Origin: Gammaproteobacteria bacterium | Lineage (GTDB): Bacteria > Pseudomonadota > Gammaproteobacteria > Pseudomonadales > Azotimanducaceae | Direction: 5' to 3' | Length of the DNA stretch: 64,000 bases | Assembly: GCA_028818795.1 (NCBI GenBank) | Contig: JAPPND010000231.1 | Location: 4,892-68,891, forward strand | In this document: one piece after another, positions 5,573 through 44,916 of the stretch | Layout of the letters: each line of letters begins with the position of its first letter | How positions within the stretch are numbered: position 1 is the stretch's first letter | The notes under the pieces: generated by a model | What the model was told of the DNA's origin: nothing | The model's database searches: none | Seen by the model: the letters and a program-made list of their open reading frames with translations, nothing else | Program-made: the position numbers and the translations under genes

Positions 5573-6859
5573 ATGGCGGGGGATCGAATGGACTGGCGCG
5601 GGAAGCTGGCGCGTTGGGCGAACGTCGGCGAGCGGGGCGCACCGGTGGCGTTCGCGGGCCGGCAGCGCGAGATCGACCTCGCGATCAGGCAGCTCGAGGC
5701 CTGGCAACCCGGAACGACGCCAGGTCGGACGGTTGTCGCCCAGGGTGCGCCGGGTGCGGGCAAGACTGCACTCTTAGGCGAGATCGCGCGTCGTCTGCCC
5801 GAACGGTTGCCCAATGCCGAAGCCATATACATGCCGACCCCCTGGATCGACGACAACGTGCCGAACGTACTTGAAGAACTCGCCGTGAAGATGGCGGGGC
5901 TTCCGGCGGACGCTCTACGCACGACCAAAGGCTCGGAGACGGTGGCCGGGGTCAAGGCCGTGGCCACGGCCCGGCACGCCGGATCCCGCTCGGTTTCGCC
6001 GCCCACGCTGCAAACCTGGCGCGCGTTCAGCCGGGAGTTCGAGCGGGTTGCCCACCGGATGAACCCGACGCTGCTTCTGATCGACGAGATTCAGCGCATC
6101 GGCGAGGGGGAGGCGACTAGGGATATGCTCTATAACCTGCACGACCAGACGACGTTCCCCGTGGTGCTGGTTTGCGGCGGCTTGTCCACGTCCGCCGCCC
6201 GACTCGGCGAGGTCGGCTTGTCGCGGCTCGACGAAGGCAGCATCCTGCGCATCGATGCGCTAACGGCTGCAGAGGCGCAGCGAAGCCTCGAAGAGTCGCT
6301 CGGCATCATGGCCGACGACATGGGCGGCATCGCCGGCCACCCGGACCGTTGGGCGCGTGCGCTTGCGCCGCCGACGCAAGGTTGGCCGCAGCACGTCACC
6401 TGCCACTTCCGGGCAGCGGCGGAGGCGCTGTTGGCCTCGGATCGTCTGGCATTCGACGACGCCAACCTGCGCGACGCACTCGCCCGCGCGGAAGAAAACA
6501 TGCGGCATTACTACGACCGCCGACTGGAGGCGTCGCGGACCCAGCCGATGGTCGTCTACGCCGTACACGAGGCGATCAAGGCCCGGACGACGCGGCGGAC
6601 GGATGCCATGGCCGTGGTGGACGCCGTGCGTGGGTTGCTCGGTCGCCACGACGCGGAGGACCACGACGCGATCTTCCGACGTGCGGGCGACTGCATCAAC
6701 CAGATGCTCTACGCCGGAGTGGTCGCCTATGCGACGAACGTAACGACATCGCCCTTGAGCATTCCCATCCCTTCCATGGCGGCGCATATCGCCGGGCTGC
6801 TGACGACGGAGCAGCGTGATGCCGTTCGCCGCGCAATCGGCCCGGCCATCGCGCACTGA
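5573..6859 (+). CDS. AAA/ORC-Cdc6-like P-loop ATPase, function unknown
   Basis: Walker A is GAPGAGKTAL and Walker B is LLLIDEIQRIG. The start was set at ATG 5573 (MAGDRMDW); the upstream part of ORF 5414 looks non-coding. Confidence 0.75.
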   Translation: MAGDRMDWRGKLARWANVGERGAPVAFAGRQREIDLAIRQLEAWQPGTTPGRTVVAQGAPGAGKTALLGEIARRLPERLPNAEAIYMPTPWIDDNVPNVLEELAVKMAGLPADALRTTKGSETVAGVKAVATARHAGSRSVSPPTLQTWRAFSREFERVAHRMNPTLLLIDEIQRIGEGEATRDMLYNLHDQTTFPVVLVCGGLSTSAARLGEVGLSRLDEGSILRIDALTAAEAQRSLEESLGIMADDMGGIAGHPDRWARALAPPTQGWPQHVTCHFRAAAEALLASDRLAFDDANLRDALARAEENMRHYYDRRLEASRTQPMVVYAVHEAIKARTTRRTDAMAVVDAVRGLLGRHDAEDHDAIFRRAGDCINQMLYAGVVAYATNVTTSPLSIPIPSMAAHIAGLLTTEQRDAVRRAIGPAIAH

Positions 6860-17956: not shown

Positions 17957-19024
17957 ATGAACGCCATCGACCTCTTTGCAGGCCCAGGAGGAATGAGTCA
18001 GGGTGCAGCCATGAGCGGAATCGACGTCCATACAGCGATTGACATCGACAAACACTCGGCTACGACCTACGCTCACAACCACCCAGCCACGAATCTGCTC
18101 GTCGCCGACGTTCAAGCAATCTCCACCCGCTCGATCCATGCAATACAGCGCGCTGCCCGGCCGAACGTCGTATTCGGCGGGCCTCCATGTCAGGGCTTCT
18201 CCTACTCCAATCCTAGACATCGGCGTCGCACCAATCCCAATAACTGGCTCTTCAGACACTTTCTCCGATTCGTCGAGATACTCAACCCCGACTGGGTCGT
18301 TCTAGAGAACGTTCCAGGTATCCGCGACACAGCTAACGGCTATTTCCTGGCATCCGTTATTTCCGGTCTAAGCCAACTTGGACGCAGAGTGCGCCACGGT
18401 CTATTGGATGCTGCTGACTATGGCGTACCGCAACACCGTCGACGCTATTTCATCGTAGCCCACAGACCAAACATTGATTTCACTCTCCCCGTACCGACCG
18501 TGAACGTTCACGTAACTGTCAACGAGGCGATCAGAGACCTCCCGCAGCTCCCAAACGGTAATACGATCTGCAAGAGAGAATACGGAACTTCGCCTCCGTC
18601 ACCTTACGCGAGGGGATTGAGAGGCCGCAGCAAGTTTTGCTACAACAACCTTGTGACGCGAAACAACAGCGCCGTAGTGGAACGTTATCAATTCATACCA
18701 CAGGGCGGGAACTGGACAGACATTCCCAAAGAACTGATGTCAACCTATCGAAATCTGTCTCAATGCCACACCGGAATCTACCACCGCTTACGGCCAGATG
18801 CCCCTGCAATTGTCATTGGGAATTTCAGGAAGAACATGCTAGTACACCCTTCAGCCGATAGAGGTCTTTCGATACGAGAGGCAGCTCGACTACAATCGTT
18901 TCCCGACCACTATAGATTCCACGGGTCAATTGGTTTTCAGCAACAACAGGTGAGCAACGCCGTACCTCCATTGCTCGCAAAGAGTGTCTTCGACTCTATC
19001 TCAAGGGCTCATACGACAACGTGA
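17957..19024 (+). CDS. dcm: DNA (cytosine-5)-methyltransferase
   Basis: All hallmark motifs are present: DLFAGPGGMSQG (I), GGPPCQGFS (IV), ENVPG (VI), QHRRRYF (VIII), REAARLQSFPD (IX) and NAVPPLLA (X). Confidence 0.93.
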   Translation: MNAIDLFAGPGGMSQGAAMSGIDVHTAIDIDKHSATTYAHNHPATNLLVADVQAISTRSIHAIQRAARPNVVFGGPPCQGFSYSNPRHRRRTNPNNWLFRHFLRFVEILNPDWVVLENVPGIRDTANGYFLASVISGLSQLGRRVRHGLLDAADYGVPQHRRRYFIVAHRPNIDFTLPVPTVNVHVTVNEAIRDLPQLPNGNTICKREYGTSPPSPYARGLRGRSKFCYNNLVTRNNSAVVERYQFIPQGGNWTDIPKELMSTYRNLSQCHTGIYHRLRPDAPAIVIGNFRKNMLVHPSADRGLSIREAARLQSFPDHYRFHGSIGFQQQQVSNAVPPLLAKSVFDSISRAHTTT

Positions 19025-20130
19025 CGGCTACCTCCGCACCATTAATCGAACACATCTCAGCCGACGAGAGTCAATACGGGATCAAGAGACCATCCCCTGG
19101 CGTGAACTACTACACGCGTTTCATGGGATTAAGCAACCATCTAAACAAGGAAGTCCATCCTAAAGTCAACGCCGGATCCACTGCGGCCGAGACAGTCTGG
19201 CTGACAGACCACGGTCCAGATCACATCGCCACCGTGATCGGCCGAATACATGATCTGGCATTCCAAAGCGGAGCCTATGTCGTTTCACCTTACGAAGCCT
19301 ATATCCTTGCCGTCGCGGCACATATGCACGACATTGGTAACGTATATGGACGCGAAGAGCACGAGCGTCGAGTTCGGGACATCCTATTCGGCCTCGATGA
19401 TACACTAATCGGTGACGACAATATCGAAAAGAGGATGATATGCGACATCGCCATGGCGCACGGGGGCAAGATTGGCTCCGACCCAAACGGAACGCCGGAC
19501 GCCATCGCCATGGATACAATCGGCAGAATGAGCCACGACCGACCAATTCGTAAACTAGCAGCTATTCTCCGACTCGCTGATGAACTGGCGGATGATCGGA
19601 CACGCTCGAACAAACTCGATCTCGAGGTATTGGCGGAGAACAAATCGTACAGAAGGCAGAGCGAGATTCATCATGTGTATGCACAGCGGCTACATCCGCC
19701 TGCCATCGATCACCAGACGCGGACCATTCAACTCACATTTGAATTATTGATGGAGCACGTAGTCGCCAAGTACTACAAGCGTGGCAAAGGGAGGTACCTT
19801 CTCGACGAGATATTCGAGAGGACTCTAAAGACGCACAGGGAACAAATCTACTGTAGCAGATTCATGTCCCCGGACATACTATTGGATCGCGTCGCCGTGG
19901 AAATCCTCGTCTGCACGCCAAAGTACCAAGAAGTCAGGGCACGGCTCGACTACACGCTGGAGCAGGCTTATCCTGTATACATCTGCAAAATCGCGGACGC
20001 TGTCCCCTCACTACATGGCGTATCCGGTCATGGTCTCGCCGGTACCATCGACGAGATCATGGAAGCACGCTACGACGGCTCACCGGTTGACCTGAATCCA
20101 ATTCTCTCGACGGCGGAGTATGAATCGTGA
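19021..20130 (+). CDS. HD-domain metal-dependent phosphohydrolase or nuclease-like protein
   Basis: HGPDHIATV...AAHMHDIGN...DIAMAHGG...RLADELADD gives an H..HD..H..D pattern. The GTG start overlaps the dcm stop (GTGA at 19021-19024). Confidence 0.75.
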   Translation: MTATSAPLIEHISADESQYGIKRPSPGVNYYTRFMGLSNHLNKEVHPKVNAGSTAAETVWLTDHGPDHIATVIGRIHDLAFQSGAYVVSPYEAYILAVAAHMHDIGNVYGREEHERRVRDILFGLDDTLIGDDNIEKRMICDIAMAHGGKIGSDPNGTPDAIAMDTIGRMSHDRPIRKLAAILRLADELADDRTRSNKLDLEVLAENKSYRRQSEIHHVYAQRLHPPAIDHQTRTIQLTFELLMEHVVAKYYKRGKGRYLLDEIFERTLKTHREQIYCSRFMSPDILLDRVAVEILVCTPKYQEVRARLDYTLEQAYPVYICKIADAVPSLHGVSGHGLAGTIDEIMEARYDGSPVDLNPILSTAEYES

Positions 20131-21929
20131 AAAGAAGCGGACTTCCCGACAATCCGTTTAAGGTGTTCACGCCAGAGGATCTGGATGCGAAGGAGATACT
20201 CGATCTTTTTGTGGAGGTCCCATATCTTAACAAAATTCAGGACCCGGGAAACACAATGCTAAACGGGCCTCGCGGTAGCGGTAAGAGCATGCTCTTTCGC
20301 TACCTAATGCCGGATTGTCAGATGGAGGCAAAATCGTTGGCGCTACGTGAACTCCCTTTCTTTGGTGTTCTAGTCTCCATTCGGAATACGGCCCCCAACC
20401 TCACCGAATTGCGACGGCTACCCGACCAATCTACAAGGGCTATCCTAAATGAGCACGCGCTGTCGTGCTTTGTTGCCTCCCGTTTTCTGCAGGCCCTGTT
20501 GGACTCATTGCCTGATCGCCCGCAGCCATCGTGGTCGGCCGCCTTGGCTAGCTACTACGACTACCTTGAATCCCTATTGGTACGATCCGGTCGACCGGCG
20601 ATTGGGCACGACGGGTTGGACGTTGCATCGCCCCAAGCCCTTCTGCAAGGCTGCCGAGACTTGTGTGAAGACTCTTATGCAGATGTAAATCACTATGCAA
20701 AGAGGATCTCCTTTGCCACATCCCTCCCGCCATACGATGGCGTTCTCTGTGACTACATGACTTTCCTTTGCCCACTTCTCGTTGAAGCTAGGAAACTTCC
20801 GTTCCTGCCCAACGAAGCGCCAATATACCTTCTGCTGGACGATGCCGACCATTTGAACAAGGACCAAACAATGGTCCTCAACTCCTGGCTTACCGCACGA
20901 ACTCAGGGAATGGTCAGTATCAAGATATCTACCCAACAGAACTACAAGACGTTGGCCACAGTGAGTGGGCACCTAGTTCGTTCGCCGCATGACTACCAAG
21001 AGATCAACATGTCGGATTTGTATACGACCAAACGCGGCCTCTATGAACGGAGCGTTAGGGAGATAGTTGATAGGAGGCTACGCCGAGCCAAAATCGCGTC
21101 TACAGGCGACGCGTTCTTTCCTCCCGATAGAGACCAAGAGCTTGAAATCACACAGATCGCAGAGGACCTTCGCAAAGCATGGAAGGATAGCGGAAGAGGT
21201 AATCGCCCGTCGGACGACGCCCTGCGATATGCCCGCCCAGAGTACATTCGGCGCCTCGGCGGTCCTTCTAAGTCACGCCACACCTATTTCTATGCAGGTC
21301 TCGATCAGCTCATTCACCTATCATCCGGGCAAGTACGGTACCTCTTGCAGCCCGCAGCTGAAATGTACGACGAGCAAGTCGGGCAACTGGCCGATAGTCC
21401 GATACGGGAGATCAGTCCGGGCATTCAGAATCGTGTCGTTAGGCAGGAGGCTGATAGATTGATGTTCTCGGAACTAGAGAATCTCGCAGTCAGTCCCACT
21501 GATGTCGATATTCCGTTCGACGAATACCGAGACCGCGTGGCGAAGCTGCGCAACTTGCTTGCGTTTCTTGGCGGGTTTTTCTTTCTCAAACTGGTCTCTG
21601 ACGATGCTGAAAGACGTGTCTTTTCAGTGGCCGTCTCGGGGGATCCGGACCTAGACGTGTTTGACGTCTTCGAATTCGGGGTCGTATTGGGTTACTTTCA
21701 TCGATCATCGATCGGCAATAAGGACGGAACCGGTAGAACCAGATTGTATGTGCTCACGAGGCGCTTAGCACCTCACTTCAACCTAGACCCTTCCTCCTTT
21801 AGCGGATACCAGTTCGTGACAAATGAAACACTGAGGAGCGCTATGGTTAATCCCGCTCGTACGGTGAGGGCGGTCCGGTCGAGGGTCAAACCTCGGCCTC
21901 TAGATGAGGGACAGATGGAGCTCTTTTGA
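20127..21929 (+). CDS. ORC/Cdc6-like P-loop NTPase (600 aa)
   Basis: Walker A is NGPRGSGKSMLFRYL and Walker B is IYLLLDDADHL. The GTG start overlaps the HD gene stop (GTGA at 20127-20130), with a GGAG-like SD 7 nt upstream. Confidence 0.75.
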   Translation: MKRSGLPDNPFKVFTPEDLDAKEILDLFVEVPYLNKIQDPGNTMLNGPRGSGKSMLFRYLMPDCQMEAKSLALRELPFFGVLVSIRNTAPNLTELRRLPDQSTRAILNEHALSCFVASRFLQALLDSLPDRPQPSWSAALASYYDYLESLLVRSGRPAIGHDGLDVASPQALLQGCRDLCEDSYADVNHYAKRISFATSLPPYDGVLCDYMTFLCPLLVEARKLPFLPNEAPIYLLLDDADHLNKDQTMVLNSWLTARTQGMVSIKISTQQNYKTLATVSGHLVRSPHDYQEINMSDLYTTKRGLYERSVREIVDRRLRRAKIASTGDAFFPPDRDQELEITQIAEDLRKAWKDSGRGNRPSDDALRYARPEYIRRLGGPSKSRHTYFYAGLDQLIHLSSGQVRYLLQPAAEMYDEQVGQLADSPIREISPGIQNRVVRQEADRLMFSELENLAVSPTDVDIPFDEYRDRVAKLRNLLAFLGGFFFLKLVSDDAERRVFSVAVSGDPDLDVFDVFEFGVVLGYFHRSSIGNKDGTGRTRLYVLTRRLAPHFNLDPSSFSGYQFVTNETLRSAMVNPARTVRAVRSRVKPRPLDEGQMELF

Positions 21930-22927
21930 GCATGGAAAAAGTCGATGTACTTCACGTCGACGAGTTGTCCTCTCGACAACTCGGTCAATTCGATGCGTTC
22001 GTGTGCTCAGCCAGCTACGAACGCAGATGTTTGTCTGTTCCGTGTGCACTACGAGAGGGGGAGGTACCGCTCGGCAGGACACTGGTTGTCTTCAATGGCA
22101 ACTATGAGGATGTCGTTCGCCTCAACCTCGATACGCTTCGGTCGCTATTCGTAGGCACATCGGACTGCACGATTGATACTGGTGACCCGGTGGCCACGGC
22201 GATCCACCTGCATCGAGAAATCAACGAGATCTGTACGCATGTCGGCACCCCGAGGCGTATTGGTGTTGATATAACTACGTTTACACGCGAGTCGCTCTTG
22301 ATAATGTTGAGTTGTTTGTGGCAGGTTCTTGAGCAGTCGGACGAAGTTGTTCTCTTCTATTGTAGGGCTCTCGAATACGACTCCCGGCATGAGGGAAGCG
22401 CAAAATGGCTTTCCCGGGGAATAAGGGAGGTCCGCTCAGTCATAGGATATCCAGGTAATCTCCGCCCTTCACGTCGTTCTCATCTGGTCGTTCTCGCAGG
22501 ATTCGAAGACGACCGGGCGCTCCGGCTAATTGCTGAGGTGGAACCAGCGGTCGTTTCCGTGGGTATTCCGGACGAAGCTGGTGGTCATGCTGCCGACCAC
22601 AGTGCAACTGCCGATTTGAAGATGCGTTCTATCAGGCGTGTCGTTGGCGACGTGAGGGAGTTCCGGTTCAATGCATACGACCCGTATGGGTGCTTTCGGT
22701 CAGTTGGACGGGAGGTTAAGAGAACCAGCGGGATGAATACGATTCTCGCTCCAATGAACACGAAGATCTCCACAGTCAGTGCAGGCATGTTTGCTATGGT
22801 CGAACCCGACGTGCAACTCTGCTATGCCCAAGCTGAGCTTTACAATTTGGACGCATATTCGGAGCCCGGAAAGGACGTCTACGTCTTTTGCCTACCGCTG
22901 CACGAAGGTGTGATTTCGGGGCTGTAG
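21926..22927 (+). CDS. Unknown protein with alternating beta/alpha (Rossmann-like) pattern; possible CARF-like ligand-sensing domain
   Basis: 333 aa. TTG 21926 overlaps the ATPase stop (TTGA); ATG 21932 is the alternative start. It has an FVCSAS strand end and DITTFTR (residues 115-121, nt 22268-22288). Low GC, coherent with the operon. Confidence 0.6.
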   Translation: MSMEKVDVLHVDELSSRQLGQFDAFVCSASYERRCLSVPCALREGEVPLGRTLVVFNGNYEDVVRLNLDTLRSLFVGTSDCTIDTGDPVATAIHLHREINEICTHVGTPRRIGVDITTFTRESLLIMLSCLWQVLEQSDEVVLFYCRALEYDSRHEGSAKWLSRGIREVRSVIGYPGNLRPSRRSHLVVLAGFEDDRALRLIAEVEPAVVSVGIPDEAGGHAADHSATADLKMRSIRRVVGDVREFRFNAYDPYGCFRSVGREVKRTSGMNTILAPMNTKISTVSAGMFAMVEPDVQLCYAQAELYNLDAYSEPGKDVYVFCLPLHEGVISGL

Positions 22928-23993
22928 CACCCGTACACGTCGAGGTCCGGCCTTTCGCAATTCCTGTGCGTTGCGACTTGATTGTTGTTCGCGGCAATGA
23001 CCCGTTTGCACAGTGCTTGCGCCGAGTCCTTCTCTTGCACGTCCGTCGGTCCGGGGTTTGACTTCCTCGCGCAACCCGCAAAAGGGGCGCAACCAAACTG
23101 GGTTATTCGCCTTCCCCGCATCAGCTACGCTCCAATCGTCAATGTCGGCCTGCGGTTTCGGCAGGTCATGTCTGGTCTTCACGGTCTGGCCACCACATTG
23201 AAGTCGGAAGTACATCAACGCGTTCAGAATGCTCGCGAGATCTGGTTCTCCAAGTGCGTCTCGCGCTCTGTTTTGTGCACGTCAGCAAGTCCGCTCTCAT
23301 GTGAGCATCTCTCTACTCCCGAGAACACTAACTCTACGGGATACCTACGGAGTGTCGAACTTGCGGATCGCAAAGAGGATCAGGCTGCTTCCGGGAACAG
23401 GCATGCCATCCACGCCGTCTACTTGGATGTCTCGACTGGGTCCTTCCAAGTAAGCAGTCTGATTCGCATACGCACAACATAGACAATCAGGCTGATCCGA
23501 ACGACGGCCAAGAAGGGATGACCTCGGTCACGAGCCTGCTTTAGGTACTGTAGGGCGACTACGGCACGGCGACGATAAAAAACCAGCGGGCCCCGGTCGT
23601 TCCGTTGCGGACGTCGTGCAATTGGGGCGGCAGTGGCCCGCAGGGGCGTCAGGGCAGGCCGGGGCCGTTTCAGGGCTGCGCCGGACGGCCCTCGTCGATT
23701 CGGTTGTCGGCGGGTGTCCGTCTTGCCGTTCAGTCGACGCGTCGGCGTGCGCCGGGCAGGCGTGGTTGTGCTCCATAAATGGCCGTATGCCTAGGCCTGA
23801 CGGCGGAAGGGGACACTGCGGACCCGACGACGTAACTCGTGCGTTGGAGACGTAACGTAGGTGGCACGGTTACCCTTGCCGCCCAGACCGGCATCGGTCC
23901 TCGTCTACGCTTGAATGCACGGTGATTCACCTTGCCGGACGTTGATCCTACGGTGCTAGAATCGAGAACCCCCCGAAGCCGAGGAACCGAATA

Positions 23994-25316
23994 ATGGGAC
24001 AACCCAACTGGCAGAACCGAACGCTGTTCCATGGCGACAATCTCGATTTCCTCCGCGCTATGAACTCGGAGTCGGTTGATCTGATCGCGACCGATCCACC
24101 GTTTAACAGGGGGCGCGATTTTCACGCGACTCCAGACAGCCTGGCCTCCGGCGCGAAATTCTAAGACAGATGGTCGTGGGAACAAGATGTTCACCAAGAA
24201 TGGGTGGACCAGATAACCGACGACTTCCCGAAGCTCATGGAAGCCATCGAAAGTGCTCGCTATGCTCATTCGGATGGAATGGGCGCGTTCATGTGCTTCA
24301 TGGCTGTTCGGCTGTTGGCCATGCATCGTGTGCTGAAACCCACTGGCAGCATTTATCTGCATTGTGACCCAACAGCCAGCCATTATCTAAAAGCGGTAAT
24401 GGACGCAGTGTTCGGGTGGAAGAACTTTAGAAACGAAATAGCGTGGTGCTATCGAGGAGGAGGTGTGCCACGAGACGGCTTCGGCAAAAAGCACGACCTG
24501 ATTTTTCGATACTCAAAGGGTAAGGCTGCCACCTTTAACGTTGATGCTGTTCGCATACCCTACTCGGAGGATTCGGCACAGCGCCTCAAATACAAGGCAA
24601 AAGCATTCACGTCGTCTGGCACATATGACAACTACGAACAGAATCCGAAGGGCAAGCACCCCGAGGATTGGTGGATAATGCAGCCCATAATGCCATCTGC
24701 CAAGGAACGCCTCGGGTACCCTACTCAGAAACCTCTCTCCCTATACGAGCGCATCGTCAAGGCATCTTCCAACGAAGGCGACGTCGTCCTCGATCCGTTC
24801 TGCGGATGCGCTACGACGCTCGTGGCCGCCGAACGGTTGAAGCGCCGATGGGTCGGGGTGGACATTTGGGAGAAGGCGCATGAAACGGTCATCAGACGTC
24901 TTCAACGGGAAGGACTCGAAGGACCCCGGGGAAGCGTCGGGGAAGCGCTGCCGTTCTACGGGAAAATACACTACGCTAAGGAGCCACCCGAAAGAACAGA
25001 CGACGGCGAGACGGCGGCTCCGTTCCTGCGCGTCAAGGAGAGGGTAAAGGAACCGGAGGGACCGAAATGGAGTCGTCAAGACATGTACGACCATCTCCTG
25101 AATCAGAACGGAATGAAGTGCCAAGGGTGTGATCGGGATTTCGATGATCCCAGATACTTGGAACTGGATCACAACACGCCCAGGGCTGACGGAGGAATCA
25201 ACCATATCTCCAATCGAATACTCCTATGTTCGCCCTGCAACCGGGCGAAAAGCAACGTCTTCACCCTGAGCGGATTGCGGCGTCACAACAAGAAAATGGG
25301 ATGGATGGCGAAATAG
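23994..25316 (+). pseudogene. Beta-class N4/N6 DNA methyltransferase fused to a C-terminal HNH nuclease, interrupted by an in-frame TAA (codon 57, nt 24162-24164)
   Basis: ATG 23994 gives ...DLIATDPPFN...ASGAKF-TAA-DRWSWEQD... in one frame. Downstream lie PTQKP, VLDPFCGCATT (AdoMet motif I) and the HNH region ELDHNTPRADGGINHISNRILLCSPCNRAKS. Confidence 0.7.
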
Positions 25317-39837: not shown

Positions 39838-39920
39838 GGCACTTCGAGGACTTCCAACATGGACGCCTGCCTGCGCGCCCTAGCGACTCATCGACGTGGC
39901 GCACCGTAAGCCGAAGGCTG

Positions 39921-39950
39921 TCGACACCGGGGACGCTTGGCGTCTATAGT
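39921..39950 (+). promoter_or_regulatory. Candidate sigma70 promoter of the second RES/Xre module
   Basis: TCGACA-N18-TATAGT, about 30 nt upstream of the antitoxin SD (AGGAG 39966-39970). Confidence 0.3.
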
Positions 39951-39978
39951 GTCCTTATGGTAGTCAGGAGATGTCCGA

Positions 39979-40530
39979 ATGGTCGCTCAATTGCCGGTAC
40001 CCCACCCCGGTCCGATGTCTCCGATGTCGGAACAGCCCCGCGTCCCCGACGGCGAGAGCCACGGCGCGACCCTGAGTGAACCCGTCGCGGCACCCTCAAG
40101 CCAAGACATACTCTCGCTTCTGACCTCAACCGCAGGCGCGGTCACGTCCCTGGTGCCGGAAGACGGCGACATGGTCGCGATGGTACGCCAAGGGTTCCCC
40201 GTCACGGCACTGGAGAATCTGGTCGCGGCTGTTGGGGCACCCCAAAAGGAAATTGCCCACGCGGTTGGCATTCCGGCGACGACTCTGGGCAGGAGGCGTC
40301 AGAACGGGCAATTGACGGCCATGGAGTCCGACCAGGTCGTACGCGTCGCTCGTCTGGTAGTCATGGCGCGTGCCATGATGGCGGGCGATGTCGACGCGGC
40401 GCGACGCTGGTTGACGACGCCACACCGATTGCTGGGCGACGAGACGCCGCTGCGCCGAGCGTCGACAGAGACGGGCGGACGTGAAGTGGAGCAACTCGTC
40501 GGCCGACTGCGCCACGGCGTCTTCAGCTAG
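39979..40530 (+). CDS. Xre-like/DUF2384 antitoxin
   Basis: HTH-like IAHAVGIPATTLGRRRQNG, then ARRWLTTPHRLLGDETPLRRASTETGGREVEQLVGRLRHGVF. AGGAG lies 8 nt before the ATG. Confidence 0.85.
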   Translation: MVAQLPVPHPGPMSPMSEQPRVPDGESHGATLSEPVAAPSSQDILSLLTSTAGAVTSLVPEDGDMVAMVRQGFPVTALENLVAAVGAPQKEIAHAVGIPATTLGRRRQNGQLTAMESDQVVRVARLVVMARAMMAGDVDAARRWLTTPHRLLGDETPLRRASTETGGREVEQLVGRLRHGVFS

Positions 40531-40621
40531 CGGGGGCACCCTACGTAAGGCGAGTGATGATGCCACTACTGCATCGGAACTCGATTCGGGTGAGAGCCTT
40601 TTGCCGCGGACATCTGGAATA

Positions 40622-41089
40622 GTGCGGGTGGGCTGGCGGTTGGCGGCACCCGAGTTCGCTCGAACCGCCGAGGACATGCTGTCCGGCGAGGGCGCCCGGT
40701 TGTATGGCGGTCGTTGGAACAGTCCTGGCCGACCGGCGGTGTATCTCGGCGACAGTCTTGCGCTCGCGAGCATGGAATTGCTGGTGCATCTCGGCGAGGC
40801 CGAGGTTCTCGAGACCTATCGGAAGATGCCCGTCTACATTCCGGAAGACACGGTGATGCACATCGACCCAAACGAACTGCCAAAAGATTGGCCGACGGGT
40901 CCGCGCACCCCGACGCGCGCCATCGGAGACCGGTGGCTGGCCCTTGAACAGTCCGTTGTCCTGCAAGTTCCGAGTGCTGTTGTATCGGGCGAGAGCAACT
41001 TCCTCGTCAATCCGAACCACTCACGCTTCGGCGCGATCACCGCCGGATCTGTCTCGGATTTCCGTTTCGATGCAAGGCTCGCGCGTTGA
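40622..41089 (+). CDS. RES-domain toxin
   Basis: GGRWNSPGRPAVYLGDSLALASMELLVHL. The start is uncertain (GTG 40622; the ORF is open from 40481). Confidence 0.85.
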   Translation: MRVGWRLAAPEFARTAEDMLSGEGARLYGGRWNSPGRPAVYLGDSLALASMELLVHLGEAEVLETYRKMPVYIPEDTVMHIDPNELPKDWPTGPRTPTRAIGDRWLALEQSVVLQVPSAVVSGESNFLVNPNHSRFGAITAGSVSDFRFDARLAR

Positions 41090-41273
41090 GGCCCCTGCGG
41101 CAGCGAACCGACGGCTCTAGCAAATCAGCGAACGCGGATGCTGCTATTGGTCCGCTTCGATGTCGCTTGGAGGCGATGTCGTACCGCGCGTAGGACCAAA
41201 AACGCGTGTGTCCGGGAATCCTAACATGTTCACCGCCCCTTTTTCTGTAGGCTCCCGCGAAAATGGGGGTATG

Positions 41274-41804
41274 TCAAAACCTCGGCCCTCCCTCGCTTCC
41301 CGCGTTCCGCGCCTCCTTTGCCTTCGACAGGTCCCCTTCGATCATGGCGGTGGCCATGCGCACGAACTCGTCGCGCTCCTCGCCTTCCAGCTTCTTCTCG
41401 AGCACGACCGTGTACTTATACCAGCCGTCGAAGGCGGTCACGGCGGTCGCCCAGGTGCCATCCGAGTACTTGTAGGTCGTCACCGAACCGTCGTGGCCCA
41501 TTATGTGCAGGTTGGGGTCGTCGAAGTGGACGCCGGCAATTTCGGATACCTCGGCATACAGCACGCCGCCGAACTTCGTGTCCGAAACGACATCAAGCCG
41601 CTCGATGCCGTTGCCAGGAAGCATGTCGAACGAGTAGCTGGCGGTCGTTGCGGGTATCTCGTCATATGCCGACAGTGACGACTGGCCGCTGCCCAGTTGT
41701 TCTGCCTCCCGCAGCAGGCTCTGCCCCCGTGGGGGGGTGGCTTGTTCGTACCATCCCCGTTCCCGTGCCCGCCGGATTTGTTCTTCCATTTCGGGCGGAA
41801 TCAT
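41274..41804 (-). CDS. Hypothetical protein
   Basis: 176-aa ORF with protein-like composition. No recognisable motif. Confidence 0.5.
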   Translation of the reverse strand: MIPPEMEEQIRRARERGWYEQATPPRGQSLLREAEQLGSGQSSLSAYDEIPATTASYSFDMLPGNGIERLDVVSDTKFGGVLYAEVSEIAGVHFDDPNLHIMGHDGSVTTYKYSDGTWATAVTAFDGWYKYTVVLEKKLEGEERDEFVRMATAMIEGDLSKAKEARNAGSEGGPRF

Positions 41805-42108
41805 CTCCTCGATTTCCCGCGGATCGGGATCTGAGAACAGTTTATCCAGGAACTCTCTTGCCGCCGAGCGAGCGAGACCGCCCTTGATATTGTCGAGCGA
41901 GGCTATTCATGCCTTTGCAGTTGGCCCGGCTGAAATACCACCCCGGTGTGTGATCATCGCCGACCGCAATGGTCGGCGAAGCCACCCCGACGGCCAGAAC
42001 GACCGCCTGTAGACTTTTGAGTCCCATTTGGGTTTCCCCCTTCAGCAAAAAATCACCTTCCCGATCGCGGGAGCGCTCGGCCAAACTCGAGGCTGTCGCT
42101 CAATTCGC

Positions 42109-43272
42109 TTAACCCGCTTTATCCGAACCCAAGAAGGAGAAACACCCATGCCATCCGCCACACTCCGCCTCGAAGCGGCACCCTTTGAACGCCGCGGCCT
42201 TCCTTTTCGCGCTGGGCCCCCGCCGCGTCGTCGTTGGTCTTGTCCGGCTGCTCGCCGACCGGATCGAGAACGGGCGGCTGGGCGCCGCCGCCGCTCGACA
42301 TCGACCTCGCGATCCGGCGGCTGCCCGAGACGGCCTATGCGGCCAAGACGCGCAGGGTCTACGCCGGCGTACTCCGCGCCCTGAACAAGTGGCTGGACGG
42401 GCGGCCGGCCACCGACGCGCTGCTTGCCCGCTACCTCGGCGTGCTGTTCGACCGGGGCCACGCGCCGCCCAGCGCCGTACACCTCGTGGCGGCGGTGCAC
42501 TACGCCGCGAAGGAGTGCGCCCGCGCGGGCCTGCGCTCAACGGACCCGGTCGGACCTGCCACGAAAGAACGGCTGGAGCGTTTCCACCGGGAGGGCGCGG
42601 AGCGCGGGACGGGCCAGGTACGGGGGATCTCGTGGAAGGAAGCCAAGGCGATGTGCAGATGCGCCGAGGCGCCCGGCGACCCGGCGGGCAAACGCGACGC
42701 CGCGATCATCTCCGTCATGTCGGACGCCCTGCTGCGGGTGGCCGAGGTTTCGGCACTGAATGTCGACGACGTGACGTTCCTCCCGGACGGCACGGCGCGG
42801 ATCAACATCCAGCGCAGCAAGACGGATCAGCGCGGCCAGGGCGCGGTGCAGTACCTGCGCGCGGCCACGGTACGCCGCCTGCGGAGGTGGATCGTTGCCG
42901 GGGGCATCCGGTCCGGCGCCCTGTTCCGGGCGGTGGACCGGTGGGGCCGCGTCTCTGCGCGGGGTCTCGGGCCGGACTCGGTCCGCGCCGCGATCAAGCG
43001 CCGCGCGAAGGAGGCCGGGATCGAGGGCCGGGTGTCCGGCCACTCGCTGCGGATCGGCTCGGCGCAGGAGCTGGCCGAGAGGGGCACGTCGCTCGCCGAG
43101 TTGCAGAAGGAGGGACGCTGGAAGGATCCGTCCATGCCGGCGCTCTACATACGCAACCAGGAGGCGTCCCGTGGCACCGTGGCGCGGCTACGGGGGGATA
43201 CCGGAAAAAAGTCGAAAAAAGCGCTTGCGGCGTCCGAAACGGTGGTGGTAGAGTCCGGATAAAGCGGGTTAA
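42109..43272. mobile_element. Cre-like recombinase gene bracketed by a perfect 17-bp inverted repeat (invertible segment or minimal mobile unit)
   Basis: ttaacccgctttatccg at 42109-42125 and its exact reverse complement cggataaagcgggttaa at 43256-43272. The right arm overlaps the recombinase stop codon. Confidence 0.5.
42234..43262 (+). CDS. Tyrosine site-specific recombinase, Cre-like
   Basis: LLRVAEV (Arg I), INIQRSKTDQ and GHSLRIGSAQELAERGTSLAELQKEGRWKDPSMPALYIRN (H-x-x-R, W, catalytic Y) run in parallel with my memory of the P1 Cre C-terminus. It has a TTG start only, so the start is uncertain. Confidence 0.85.
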   Translation: MVLSGCSPTGSRTGGWAPPPLDIDLAIRRLPETAYAAKTRRVYAGVLRALNKWLDGRPATDALLARYLGVLFDRGHAPPSAVHLVAAVHYAAKECARAGLRSTDPVGPATKERLERFHREGAERGTGQVRGISWKEAKAMCRCAEAPGDPAGKRDAAIISVMSDALLRVAEVSALNVDDVTFLPDGTARINIQRSKTDQRGQGAVQYLRAATVRRLRRWIVAGGIRSGALFRAVDRWGRVSARGLGPDSVRAAIKRRAKEAGIEGRVSGHSLRIGSAQELAERGTSLAELQKEGRWKDPSMPALYIRNQEASRGTVARLRGDTGKKSKKALAASETVVVESG

Positions 43273-43374
43273 CCAGATGATTTTGTTCACATTTGTCGAA
43301 TGGGGCAAGAATGTCGTTGATGCGTGCCGTAGTTGACCCCGGCACGTAGTTCAAACGGGGGCGGGCCCCCGACT

Positions 43375-44916
43375 CTACGATGGTCGACTAGTGCCCGGAA
43401 GACTGCGTCGCAGCGTTTCCCCTATTCTTCCGGCTGCGGCCGTCGATTCCGAACGATAGCGCAGGCGAACCGTGTAGACATCGTCACCGGTAAGCACTCC
43501 GCCGCGTCCGAACAGCCGTCCGTGCTGCCAGTTCGATAGGCCGAGTTCGGGTTTGCCGAGGGCGAACTGACCGTCCACCCAGCGGGTGTGGTCATCGCCT
43601 ACGAAGGGCGAGTCCAGGGCGTTGAAGAACCGCTCGTGCTCGGCGGCGTCGTTCGAGAGGAGCGTCCCGACAAGGCGCGGACTCAGGTCGTTGAAGAGCC
43701 GCACCGCCTCGTCCAGGGAGTCGACGCCAACGATGCTGACTTCGGGCGTTTCCTCCCACTCCCACTCGGCACCCAAGTCCGCCGTCCCGATCGTCTCCGC
43801 CTGCGGTTCGCGAACCGGTCCCCCGGCCCGAACCACGTCGACCTCGCCAGCGAACAGGGAGTCGGGCATCAGGCCTTCGCTGCCTCGTGCGACGTGCACC
43901 TTGAACACGGCGCCCCTCGCTTCGCCAGCCCGGCGCAAACCCCGGAGTACTGCATCGGCCAGCCGTGACTGTCCCGGCCCGTTCACGAGGCAGCAGGTGT
44001 TTAGGGTGTTGCAGACCTTACGGTCCAGGGAGCGGAACACCGCCTCTTCCACGGCATCTTCGTCGACACTGTCCGAAACCACCATCCATGCGCCCCCCGT
44101 GCCGTGCAGGCTTACCGGCGTACCCGCGCTGCGGGCGAGCGACCCCAAGGCGGCCACGGCCGGGCCCGATCCGCGGGCCACCGCAAGCGACAACCGGCGA
44201 TCCAGGAACAGGGCCCAACCGGCGGCATGCGCCGAACTGTCCACCAGCGAGACGGCTCCGGCAGGGAGCCCGGCCTTTGCCAGCGCCGGTGCGATGGCAA
44301 CCGCCATGATCGTCCGGGCGGTGGCCAGCGCATCACTGCCGATCCGGAACACAACCGTGTTGCCGCCGCGCAACACCCCGCAGGCGTCGGCCAGTACGTT
44401 GGGTCGACCTTCGAATACGAAGGCGACCACACCGAGCGCAGCGCCCACCAAATCGACCTCGAAGCCATCCCGGCGCACCGTGTCGAGCACGGCACCCCGG
44501 CGTGAAGGCATCGATGCCCACCCGCGCAGGCCCTCGATCATCTTCTCGCGCATGGACTCCGACACGCCGAGGCGCGTCGTCGACCGGCCGAGTCGCCGCG
44601 CGTTCTCCACGTCGCCGGCGTTGACCGCCGCCACCTTGTTCCAAACGCCGTCGTCCGCCAACGCGCTCACCGCGTGGTCGTAGAAAGCGACGATCGCTTC
44701 GTCGGCGACCCCGGCCATGTCCGAGAAGGCAGCCGCGGCGGTATCCACGGCAGCGGTTGCGGTACGGAGTTCAGCGGCCGGAATGTGGAGCAGCCCGGCT
44801 TGGGAGTCGGCGACCATACGGTCCCCCGACCGAAATGCCGCTGCCAAGTCACCGTCCAGGGTGAAAGCCTGGCCGTCGGCGGCGAGAATCCGTGTGCCTT
44901 GCTTCAAGTCGTCCAT
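43375..44916 (-). CDS. Gamma-glutamyl phosphate reductase-like aldehyde dehydrogenase with an N-terminal extension
   Basis: FEGRPNVLADA and KVCNTLNTCCLV (catalytic Cys region) resemble ProA. It is 513 aa, against roughly 420 aa for a typical ProA (from memory). Confidence 0.7.
   Translation of the reverse strand: MDDLKQGTRILAADGQAFTLDGDLAAAFRSGDRMVADSQAGLLHIPAAELRTATAAVDTAAAAFSDMAGVADEAIVAFYDHAVSALADDGVWNKVAAVNAGDVENARRLGRSTTRLGVSESMREKMIEGLRGWASMPSRRGAVLDTVRRDGFEVDLVGAALGVVAFVFEGRPNVLADACGVLRGGNTVVFRIGSDALATARTIMAVAIAPALAKAGLPAGAVSLVDSSAHAAGWALFLDRRLSLAVARGSGPAVAALGSLARSAGTPVSLHGTGGAWMVVSDSVDEDAVEEAVFRSLDRKVCNTLNTCCLVNGPGQSRLADAVLRGLRRAGEARGAVFKVHVARGSEGLMPDSLFAGEVDVVRAGGPVREPQAETIGTADLGAEWEWEETPEVSIVGVDSLDEAVRLFNDLSPRLVGTLLSNDAAEHERFFNALDSPFVGDDHTRWVDGQFALGKPELGLSNWQHGRLFGRGGVLTGDDVYTVRLRYRSESTAAAGRIGETLRRSLPGTSRPS

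Follow-up and report, generated by a model that had tools for sequence, protein, structure and literature searches.

We analysed a 64,000-nucleotide stretch of contig JAPPND010000231.1 (assembly GCA_028818795.1, Gammaproteobacteria bacterium), hereafter the window, which contains a Cre-like tyrosine recombinase gene bracketed by a short inverted repeat. We read this locus as a decayed member of a family in which a Cre-like gene lies between two inverted copies of its own core site, an arrangement from which inversion of the gene-bearing segment is predicted, and we put the probability of this reading at roughly one half. The block from one repeat to the other (about 1.16-1.3 kb across the family, ∼1.16 kb here) is a discrete, conserved and dispersed unit whose flanks turn over at the sites. 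The copy in the window is a relic whose chief value is as a pointer to this family, which is more interesting than the dead copy itself.

A Cre-type recombinase between inverted repeats

The left arm of the repeat, TTAACCCGCTTTATCCG (42109-42125), recurs as its exact reverse complement at 43256-43272, and the match extends to 20 nt when one mismatch is allowed. Shuffled sequence gave a mean of 0.05 matches to the repeat, and the 64-kb window holds only these two copies of the 17-mer at a tolerance of up to three mismatches. The right arm includes the stop codon of the recombinase; on the other side, 22 nt separate the left arm from an ATG at 42148 that is preceded by AAGGAGA. The exact repeat around the recombinase, its overlap with the stop codon and the single pair of 17-mers all stand as reported in a preliminary description of this DNA. 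The spacing between the left arm and the Shine-Dalgarno (SD) sequence with its ATG is also as reported there, but that description overlooked that this ATG is out of frame with the catalytic open reading frame (ORF, 42234-43262).

Intact homologues of 370-376 amino acids begin with MPSATVHLEAAPLNAAAFLFALGPRRVVVGLVRLLADRIENGGWAPPPLDIDL, and the window encodes the corresponding stretch in three successive frames. In a DNA alignment with relatives (four in all), the two frameshifts are an extra T in TTT at 42184-42186 and an extra G in GGG at 42272-42274. By inspection, most substitutions among the relatives are silent in this N-terminal part, which argues that it is a constrained coding region. 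The window copy is thus a dead pseudogene with ATG 42148 as its ancestral start: with two frameshifts it is unable to make the recombinase, and the unit is frozen unless a paralogue could supply the enzyme in trans. Every other family locus checked has an ORF of 336-382 amino acids that ends inside or just before the right arm. Sequencing error was considered as the source of the first frameshift and rejected, since an independent Logan assembly (contig L089), 100% identical to the window as far as 42265, repeats it; this contig supports the first frameshift only. Over 17.2 kb, the window aligns without gaps and at 99.994% identity to L088, an ENA scaffold from a sponge metagenome; as this scaffold may simply be the same assembly or sample as the window, it does not count as independent evidence.

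The enclosed protein had been said to parallel P1 Cre, and sequence and structure comparisons agree. It matches Pfam Phage_integrase (PF00589) at 61.9 bits (cut-off 27.1, E 8.3e-17), and its best match in the PDB is Cre (E 1.5e-13), with the GHS.R, GRW and Y.RN motifs aligned. The catalytic R-K-H-R-W-Y set is complete (R at 42735, K at 42819, H at 43041, R at 43050, W at 43119 and Y at 43146) and lies downstream of the frameshifts; these residues, numbered in Table 1, are invariant in alignments of 17 and of 47 sequences and align with those of Cre. An AlphaFold2 model of the intact homologue P0001 (predicted local distance difference test score, pLDDT, 80) has two domains and no arm-binding domain. 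In the Foldseek ranking of this model, places 1-31 are all Cre or Tre (Cre E 5e-13, ∼322 aligned columns), followed by XerA, XerH and IntI, the last at rank 41 or lower. NCBIfam Xer models score far under their cut-offs (XerA 53 against 220, XerD 36 against 330), which places the family outside the Xer/dif systems. By sequence and predicted fold we regard the protein as a simple recombinase of the Cre type that carries an additional helix at its N-terminus. Viral contigs in IMG/VR hold only relatives of 27-32% identity, so the family is not phage-borne there.

A protein search returned 229 relatives, mainly from metagenome-assembled genomes (MAGs) labelled 'Gammaproteobacteria bacterium', and a genome scan gave 80 family loci. 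The family occurs in MAGs of Pseudomonadales, Acidobacteriota, Azotimanducaceae, Binatia, Entotheonella, Poribacteria, Dehalococcoidia, Rhodobacteraceae and others, and bin names agree with published sponge-microbiome MAG sets (e.g., PMC8163846). Many genomes carry several copies (at least six in OY762824.1, three in OZ220680.1 and four in COS4_bin_29), and pairs from the same genome are 95-98% identical with different flanks. The remaining family records presumably also come from sponges, going by their sequencing projects.

An inverted repeat flanks the gene at the same two positions with a score of at least 14 in 33 of the 80 loci, the null maximum being 13, and about 10 further loci score 12-13 with the same motifs (repeat types in Table 1). 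Distant members (∼45-50% identity, e.g., in Acidobacteriota) showed no flanking repeat in the stretches searched. In the Acidobacteriota loci L020, L022, L023, L028 and L033-L035, such distant members lie in multi-kb regions that are conserved among genomes and duplicated within genomes, with no flanking inverted repeat detected, and the recombinase may there be part of a larger repeated element. A metagenome scan with the 17-mer pattern was uninformative, yielding 100 single, chance-like matches in unrelated environments.

The limits of the unit coincide with the repeats. The window copy can be aligned with L001, L082, L083, L195, L196 and L197 from 42106-42110 to 43273-43294 and not beyond, and its subfamily occupies four chromosomal contexts: at a sulfatase gene (L001, L081-83, L195), between macB and an aldehyde dehydrogenase gene (this window), at ccmE (L196) and at a Golvesin_C gene (L197). 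Among the sulfatase-site orthologues, synteny is kept rightward and lost at the outer edge of the left arm, and these relatives lie at the edge of a variable region with an AbiEii gene. L196 and L197 have a wider left region in common, and their sequences diverge immediately outside the unit on both sides. Conserved sequence accompanies the unit past one arm in subfamilies 1 and 2, over ∼45 nt past the right arm in subfamily 1 and ∼30 nt past the left arm in subfamily 2; searched for as a possible insertion target, the subfamily-1 tail motif was found solely beside right arms. In nearly all loci the gene to the left is divergent and has its start ∼50-400 nt away from the left arm; such neighbours are of diverse kinds, with N-termini that are signal-peptide-like by inspection. 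The left flanks themselves form a few classes that track the class of the neighbouring gene, all joined at one and the same nucleotide. Copies in different contexts are 85-91% identical, as diverged as host core genes, and the window subfamily therefore gives no sign of recent jumps. In L196 (5001-6920) the unit lies directly 3' of ccmE in place of the usual ccmF, and the ccm operon is apparently split by it.

Paired core sites and the case for inversion

Each arm is itself dyad-symmetric, with the overall pattern YGR-TTAAC-NNNN-GTTAA-YCGR. Read from outside to inside, both ends of subfamily 1 give YGR-TTAAC-TCGC-GTTAA-YCGA; the dyad is CGATAAC-TCGG-GTTATCG in the arms of L026, and those of subfamily 2 fit GGTTCCGCGAA-TCCGCT-GTTGCGGAACC. 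In subfamily 1, the three flanking bases are kept despite differing context: of 58 arms, 41 have G at position -2 and 52 have a pyrimidine at -3. The symmetry reads as 9-4-9 or 11-6-11 (the lox type being 13-8-13), and each arm looks like a complete core site and not a half-site, with two predicted inverted binding elements around a short asymmetric centre.

We compared these centres in 29 loci, discounting the left arm of L197 for a one-base misregister. Within a unit, positions 5-13 are always identical between the arms, and 47 arm-against-arm mismatches fall at positions 1 and 14-18. Positions 5, 6, 9 and 10 are polymorphic between loci, giving the centres CTCGCG, CCCGCG, CCCGCT, GCCGCG, CTCGCA and CTCGGG; CCCGCT is private to the window, where it stands in both arms, GCCGCG is that of L196 and L197, CTCGCA that of L016 and CTCGGG that of L026. 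In the overlap regions of lox, FRT and att sites, it is classical for the sequence to vary from lineage to lineage and yet be identical in the two partners. As the central 6 bp vary between lineages yet match between partners, the analogy suggests that the two arms of a unit may recombine with each other and, the sites being inverted, that recombination would flip a segment of 1.13 kb. The conserved position of the repeats and the covariation of their arms likewise support the prediction that they are functional partners of the enclosed recombinase.

One locus of subfamily 2, L047, carries a mixed site. On the right side of this unit (6057-6300), the site has a right-type inner half joined to a left-type flank, followed by an outward-facing gene with a signal-peptide-like N-terminus, and the outer half of the site is probably left-type too. 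A natural recombinant of this kind would be expected if the right site had crossed over, at its centre, with the left site of another unit. The L047 unit is thus flanked on both sides by genes directed away from it.

In the mechanism we propose, the recombinase would synapse the two sites, which carry the same 6-bp centre in opposite orientation, and recombination between them would invert the segment bearing the gene. Flipping would be rare or strongly biased toward the observed orientation. After a flip, transcription of the cassette would leave its stop-codon end into the outward-facing secreted-protein gene, so that the unit could act as a biased ON/OFF switch. Inverted recombinase sites next to a cognate recombinase, one of the hallmarks of invertons, are present; a second, the occurrence of both orientations in populations or among strains, was not seen in ∼40 assembled loci. 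Nearly all loci have an outward gene with a signal-peptide-like N-terminus beside the left site, L047 has one on each side, and the scans support no promoter.

Several observations weigh against inversion. No flip from repeat to repeat was found in the assemblies of the ∼40 loci and their orthologous sets. The subfamily-1 tail TCGACTAC..CGCGGACA..GACTCTA always stands at the stop-codon end (18 loci), as does the AT-rich flank of subfamily 2 (12 loci), and the five sulfatase-site genomes are all in one orientation; by our estimate, an unbiased switch would give this agreement of all orthologous sets about once in 500. The nearest approach to a flip is between L009 (3757-6296) and L019 (3670-5952), which have the same two flanks with the left-neighbour genes and the recombinase in opposite orientations. 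We rejected this swap as a repeat-to-repeat event, since the block includes the left-neighbour genes, and L019 is without a right arm and carries a fragment of an IS66-family transposase. Nor do the flanks help: scans of the right flank for consensus sigma-70 promoters stayed at shuffle background, and -10-like boxes were seen by eye only. In the tail outside the right arm (43273-43300), such a box lies on the minus strand 7 nt from the arm (CAAAAT in the window, TATAAT or TACAAT in relatives), without statistical support from the consensus scan; an inward promoter at this place, which would drive the flipped gene, found no support in the shuffle-level scans. The invariant centre of subfamily 2 carries no covariation signal and is uninformative, and the concerted change of centres elsewhere could instead reflect co-evolving binding specificity. 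Inversion alone, finally, leaves the spread of the unit to new loci unexplained.

A freely flipping switch is unlikely because no repeat-to-repeat inversion was found in any locus; flipping must be rare, strongly biased or extinct. Of the self-encoded invertible switch put forward in the preliminary description, what stands is the pair of complete inverted dyad sites with a matching 6-bp centre; the gene in the window is dead, and no repeat-to-repeat flip was seen in the loci compared. At the level of the family, we consider mobility and inversion equally plausible.

Mobility, island integration and RNA pairing as alternatives

The alternative that survives best, possible though on balance doubtful, is that the unit is a minimal element of insertion sequence (IS) type, with the tyrosine recombinase as its transposase and the repeats as the element-side half-sites of attL and attR. 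Crossover would take place at or just outside the outer tips, as with the coupling sequences of Tn916-type elements, and a 1.16-kb circle with a lox-like junction (arm, spacer, arm) would integrate elsewhere. The layout is the classical one, a single ORF filling the unit, its start just interior to the left repeat and its stop within the right one. The family spans phyla in sponge microbiomes, the near-identical copies in different flanks agree with a multicopy element (the window has a single copy), and the four contexts of the window subfamily have homology that ends within a few nt of the repeats. In addition, the 17 bp can be divided into 13 bp plus TTAA, and by our reckoning abutted ends would then give 13-8-13, the geometry of loxP.

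Related genomes show what is variable at the window locus. In L084, L085 and L086, whose dehydrogenase is 90-93% identical to that of the window, only ∼85 nt lie between the macB stop and the dehydrogenase stop, the place of a 3.5-kb insertion in the window (Table 1). L087 is a still closer genome, with an identical MacB protein and the toxin-antitoxin (TA) pair in place, and is missing a 2.1-kb block; with microhomology on its two sides, this difference may be a deletion. The unit is thus strain-variable at this site, in indels that exceed it and do not end at the repeats. A clean empty site lacking just the 1.16-kb unit was not found among the relatives compared, and this is the part that fails in the earlier suggestion of a minimal mobile element bounded by inverted repeats, which the multiple copies, the contexts and the boundaries at the repeats otherwise favour. 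Target-site duplications, raised as a possibility in the same description, are absent around the unit, as are flanking direct repeats and any shared overlap sequence; tyrosine recombinases are not expected to leave a duplicated target. Rfam and tRNA scans returned nothing, so the site is neither a tRNA target nor a known RNA.

Further features speak against an IS-like element. Conserved sequence continues past one arm in both subfamilies, the YGR motif completes the dyad at both ends and concerted change is confined to the central 6 bp, which terminal half-sites should not need. The nearly constant presence of a divergent, signal-peptide-like left neighbour is unlike random insertion, and the divergence between contexts, at the level of core genes, is unlike the product of recent jumps.

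Less probable still is that the recombinase serves as the integrase of the adjacent small island, which holds the TA pair and secreted-protein genes, using other att sites while the repeats act as looping autoregulatory operators. The gene does stand at the end of the strain-variable 3.5-kb insertion that begins with the TA pair, the sulfatase-site relatives also border a variable region (that with the AbiEii gene), and the left arm, between any upstream promoter and the SD, is in a typical operator position. However, the insertion edges show no direct repeats, att-like sites or shared island ends. The island content is wholly different between loci, with only the repeat-to-repeat block conserved; operators need no asymmetric 6-bp centre that varies between lineages and is identical between arms; and the hybrid site of L047 points to real crossovers. 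An 11-nt match, GTCGCTCAATT (at 39982 and 42095), was seen as a candidate island-end repeat and is not supported.

It is highly improbable that the repeat is a chance match or an mRNA panhandle joining the 5' untranslated region to the 3' end: chance is excluded by the shuffles (mean 0.05) and by conservation in dozens of loci, and a panhandle, for which both arms would lie on one transcript and whose pairing arm covariation would maintain, was rejected because the arm differences are not G-U compatible (C against T at position 15, T against A at position 1), the flank bases and internal dyad would have no role and there is no Rfam match.

Relation to known systems and surroundings of the unit

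It is well established that tyrosine recombinases can invert or mobilise DNA. The family resembles Cre/loxP of P1 and the other Cre-type systems (Dre/rox, VCre, Vika) in sequence, in fold and in having two domains without an arm-binding domain, and it has in common with Cre the R-K-H-R-W-Y set, the GHS.R...GRW...Y.RN motifs and a short dyad site with an asymmetric centre next to the gene. It differs from Cre in several respects: identity is only ∼22%, there is an extra N-terminal helix of ∼45 amino acids, two inverted sites flank the gene where Cre has one lox site upstream, the site reads 9-4-9 or 11-6-11 instead of 13-8-13, and the module is chromosomal and multicopy and not phage-borne.

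In working principle the closest systems are the H segment of Salmonella (Hin/hix) and FLP/FRT of the yeast 2-micron plasmid, where the recombinase gene also lies between inverted copies of its own sites and the enzyme thereby inverts the gene that encodes it. An outward promoter of the Hin segment switches a neighbouring gene, a role we tentatively propose for the cassette as well. Hin, unlike the family, belongs to the serine recombinases and depends on Fis and an enhancer, FLP belongs to a plasmid with 599-bp repeats and serves copy-number amplification, and both orientations are readily observed in these two systems whereas none of the family loci has been seen in a second one. The XerS/difSL, XerH/difH and archaeal XerA/dif systems are simple tyrosine recombinases with a ∼28-bp 11-6-11 site near the gene, like the family, and XerA and XerH are its next structural matches after Cre; they use a single site, in single copy per chromosome, for dimer resolution, whereas each unit here has two inverted sites and a genome may hold many units. 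The low rank of IntI (41 or lower) and the lack of extra site copies place the family outside the integrons: no third or hybrid copies, of the kind expected from circle integration or integron-style capture, were found within 5 kb on each side of units.

Other mobile modules resemble the unit in part. The pdif modules of Acinetobacter plasmids are bounded by inverted recombinase sites and have shuffled flanks, like the family, but they depend on host XerCD in trans and their cargo is not the recombinase. RIT elements are multicopy, bounded by inverted repeats and encode tyrosine recombinases, but there are three recombinase genes in each, and the repeats measure 100 bp or more. Tn916-type elements are large and encode Xis and an integrase with an arm-binding domain, unlike the family. 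All three produce no target duplication, as is the case here.

The literature searched holds no description of a Cre-type gene between two inverted complete sites of its own, occurring as a conserved ∼1.2-kb unit that is dispersed among symbionts of several phyla from a single habitat. Tentatively, the family might represent previously unrecognised autonomous recombinase cassettes of sponge symbionts, either a biased self-flipping phase switch of the adjacent secreted-protein gene combined with a hotspot of flank exchange, or the first IS-like element with a Cre-type recombinase as its sole protein. In either mode it would supply a natural collection of Cre-like enzymes that each have a compact site and a 6-bp centre of their own. 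Should the sites be partners, the family would be a source of dozens of natural enzyme-site pairs whose centres have diverged, potential orthogonal recombination tools, as well as a handle on secreted-protein variation and small-island reshuffling in sponge symbionts.

Table 1. Coordinates of the unit and neighbouring features in the window, and repeat types of the family
Feature	Position	Strand	Remarks
Left arm	42109..42125	+	Core of left site, full extent ∼42103-42130; proposed 6-bp crossover centre CCCGCT at 42113-42118; from repeat search, position and dyad kept in relatives
Right arm	43256..43272	-	Core of right site, full extent ∼43251-43278; centre AGCGGG at 43263-43268 (+ strand); contains stop TAA 43260-43262; from repeat search and relatives
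AT-rich tail outside right arm	43273..43300	.	Partial likeness to the tail of sulfatase-site relatives (ATGATTnTnTT...ATTT)
Cre-like tyrosine recombinase pseudogene	42148..43262	+	Ancestral SD 42134-42140, ATG 42148; two +1 frameshifts; from frame reading and alignment to relatives
Longest open frame	42234..43262	+	342 amino acids, full catalytic domain; R168, K196, H270, R273, W296, Y305
Divergent left neighbour	41274..42027	-	ORFs 41842-42027 (signal-peptide-like) and 41274-41804; apparent single secreted-protein gene, frameshift near 41830-41850; no Pfam or PHROG match
Strain-variable insertion, 3.5 kb	39838..43395	.	macB stop to aldehyde-dehydrogenase stop; Xre/ParS antitoxin 39979-40530, RES toxin to 41089, left ORFs, recombinase unit
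Block missing from L087, 2.1 kb	41229..43376 (end approximate)	.	Two left ORFs, recombinase unit and tail
Repeat, window group and subfamily 1			TTAACYCGCGTTAWCCG
Repeat, subfamily 2			TTGGTTCCGCGAATCCGCTGTT
Repeat, L026			GATAACTCGGGTTATCGGCA
Repeat, other groups			L063, L076, L067/L077

The left part of the 3.5-kb insertion (39979-41089) consists of an Xre/MbcA/ParS-type antitoxin and a RES-domain toxin. In L087 three extra genes (DUF6714 and two unknowns) lie between macB and this pair. A 29-nt sequence, GCGCGTAGGACCAAAAACGCGTGTGTCCG, occurs once in the window (41186-41214) and as a tandem duplicate ∼63 nt apart in L087 (12222-12313), exactly at the missing 2.1-kb block. The N-terminus of the left neighbour, MGLKSLQ...PGWYFSRANCKG, resembles that of the 340-amino-acid left neighbour of L081, and upstream of the gene a hairpin is followed by a T-run on the minus strand (42059-42072).

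On the other side of the unit (43375-43425), the aldehyde dehydrogenase gene has a 2-nt deletion in its last ∼10 codons relative to its relatives, by which the C-terminal residues are replaced and the ORF runs 15 codons further into the spacer. Elsewhere in the window, 17957-25316 is an island of low guanine-cytosine content (53-60% against a background of 65-68%) that encodes a C5 DNA methylase, an HD-CE protein, an ORC-CDC6-like ATPase and a fusion of an N6/N4 methylase with an HNH nuclease, and it looks like a defence island.

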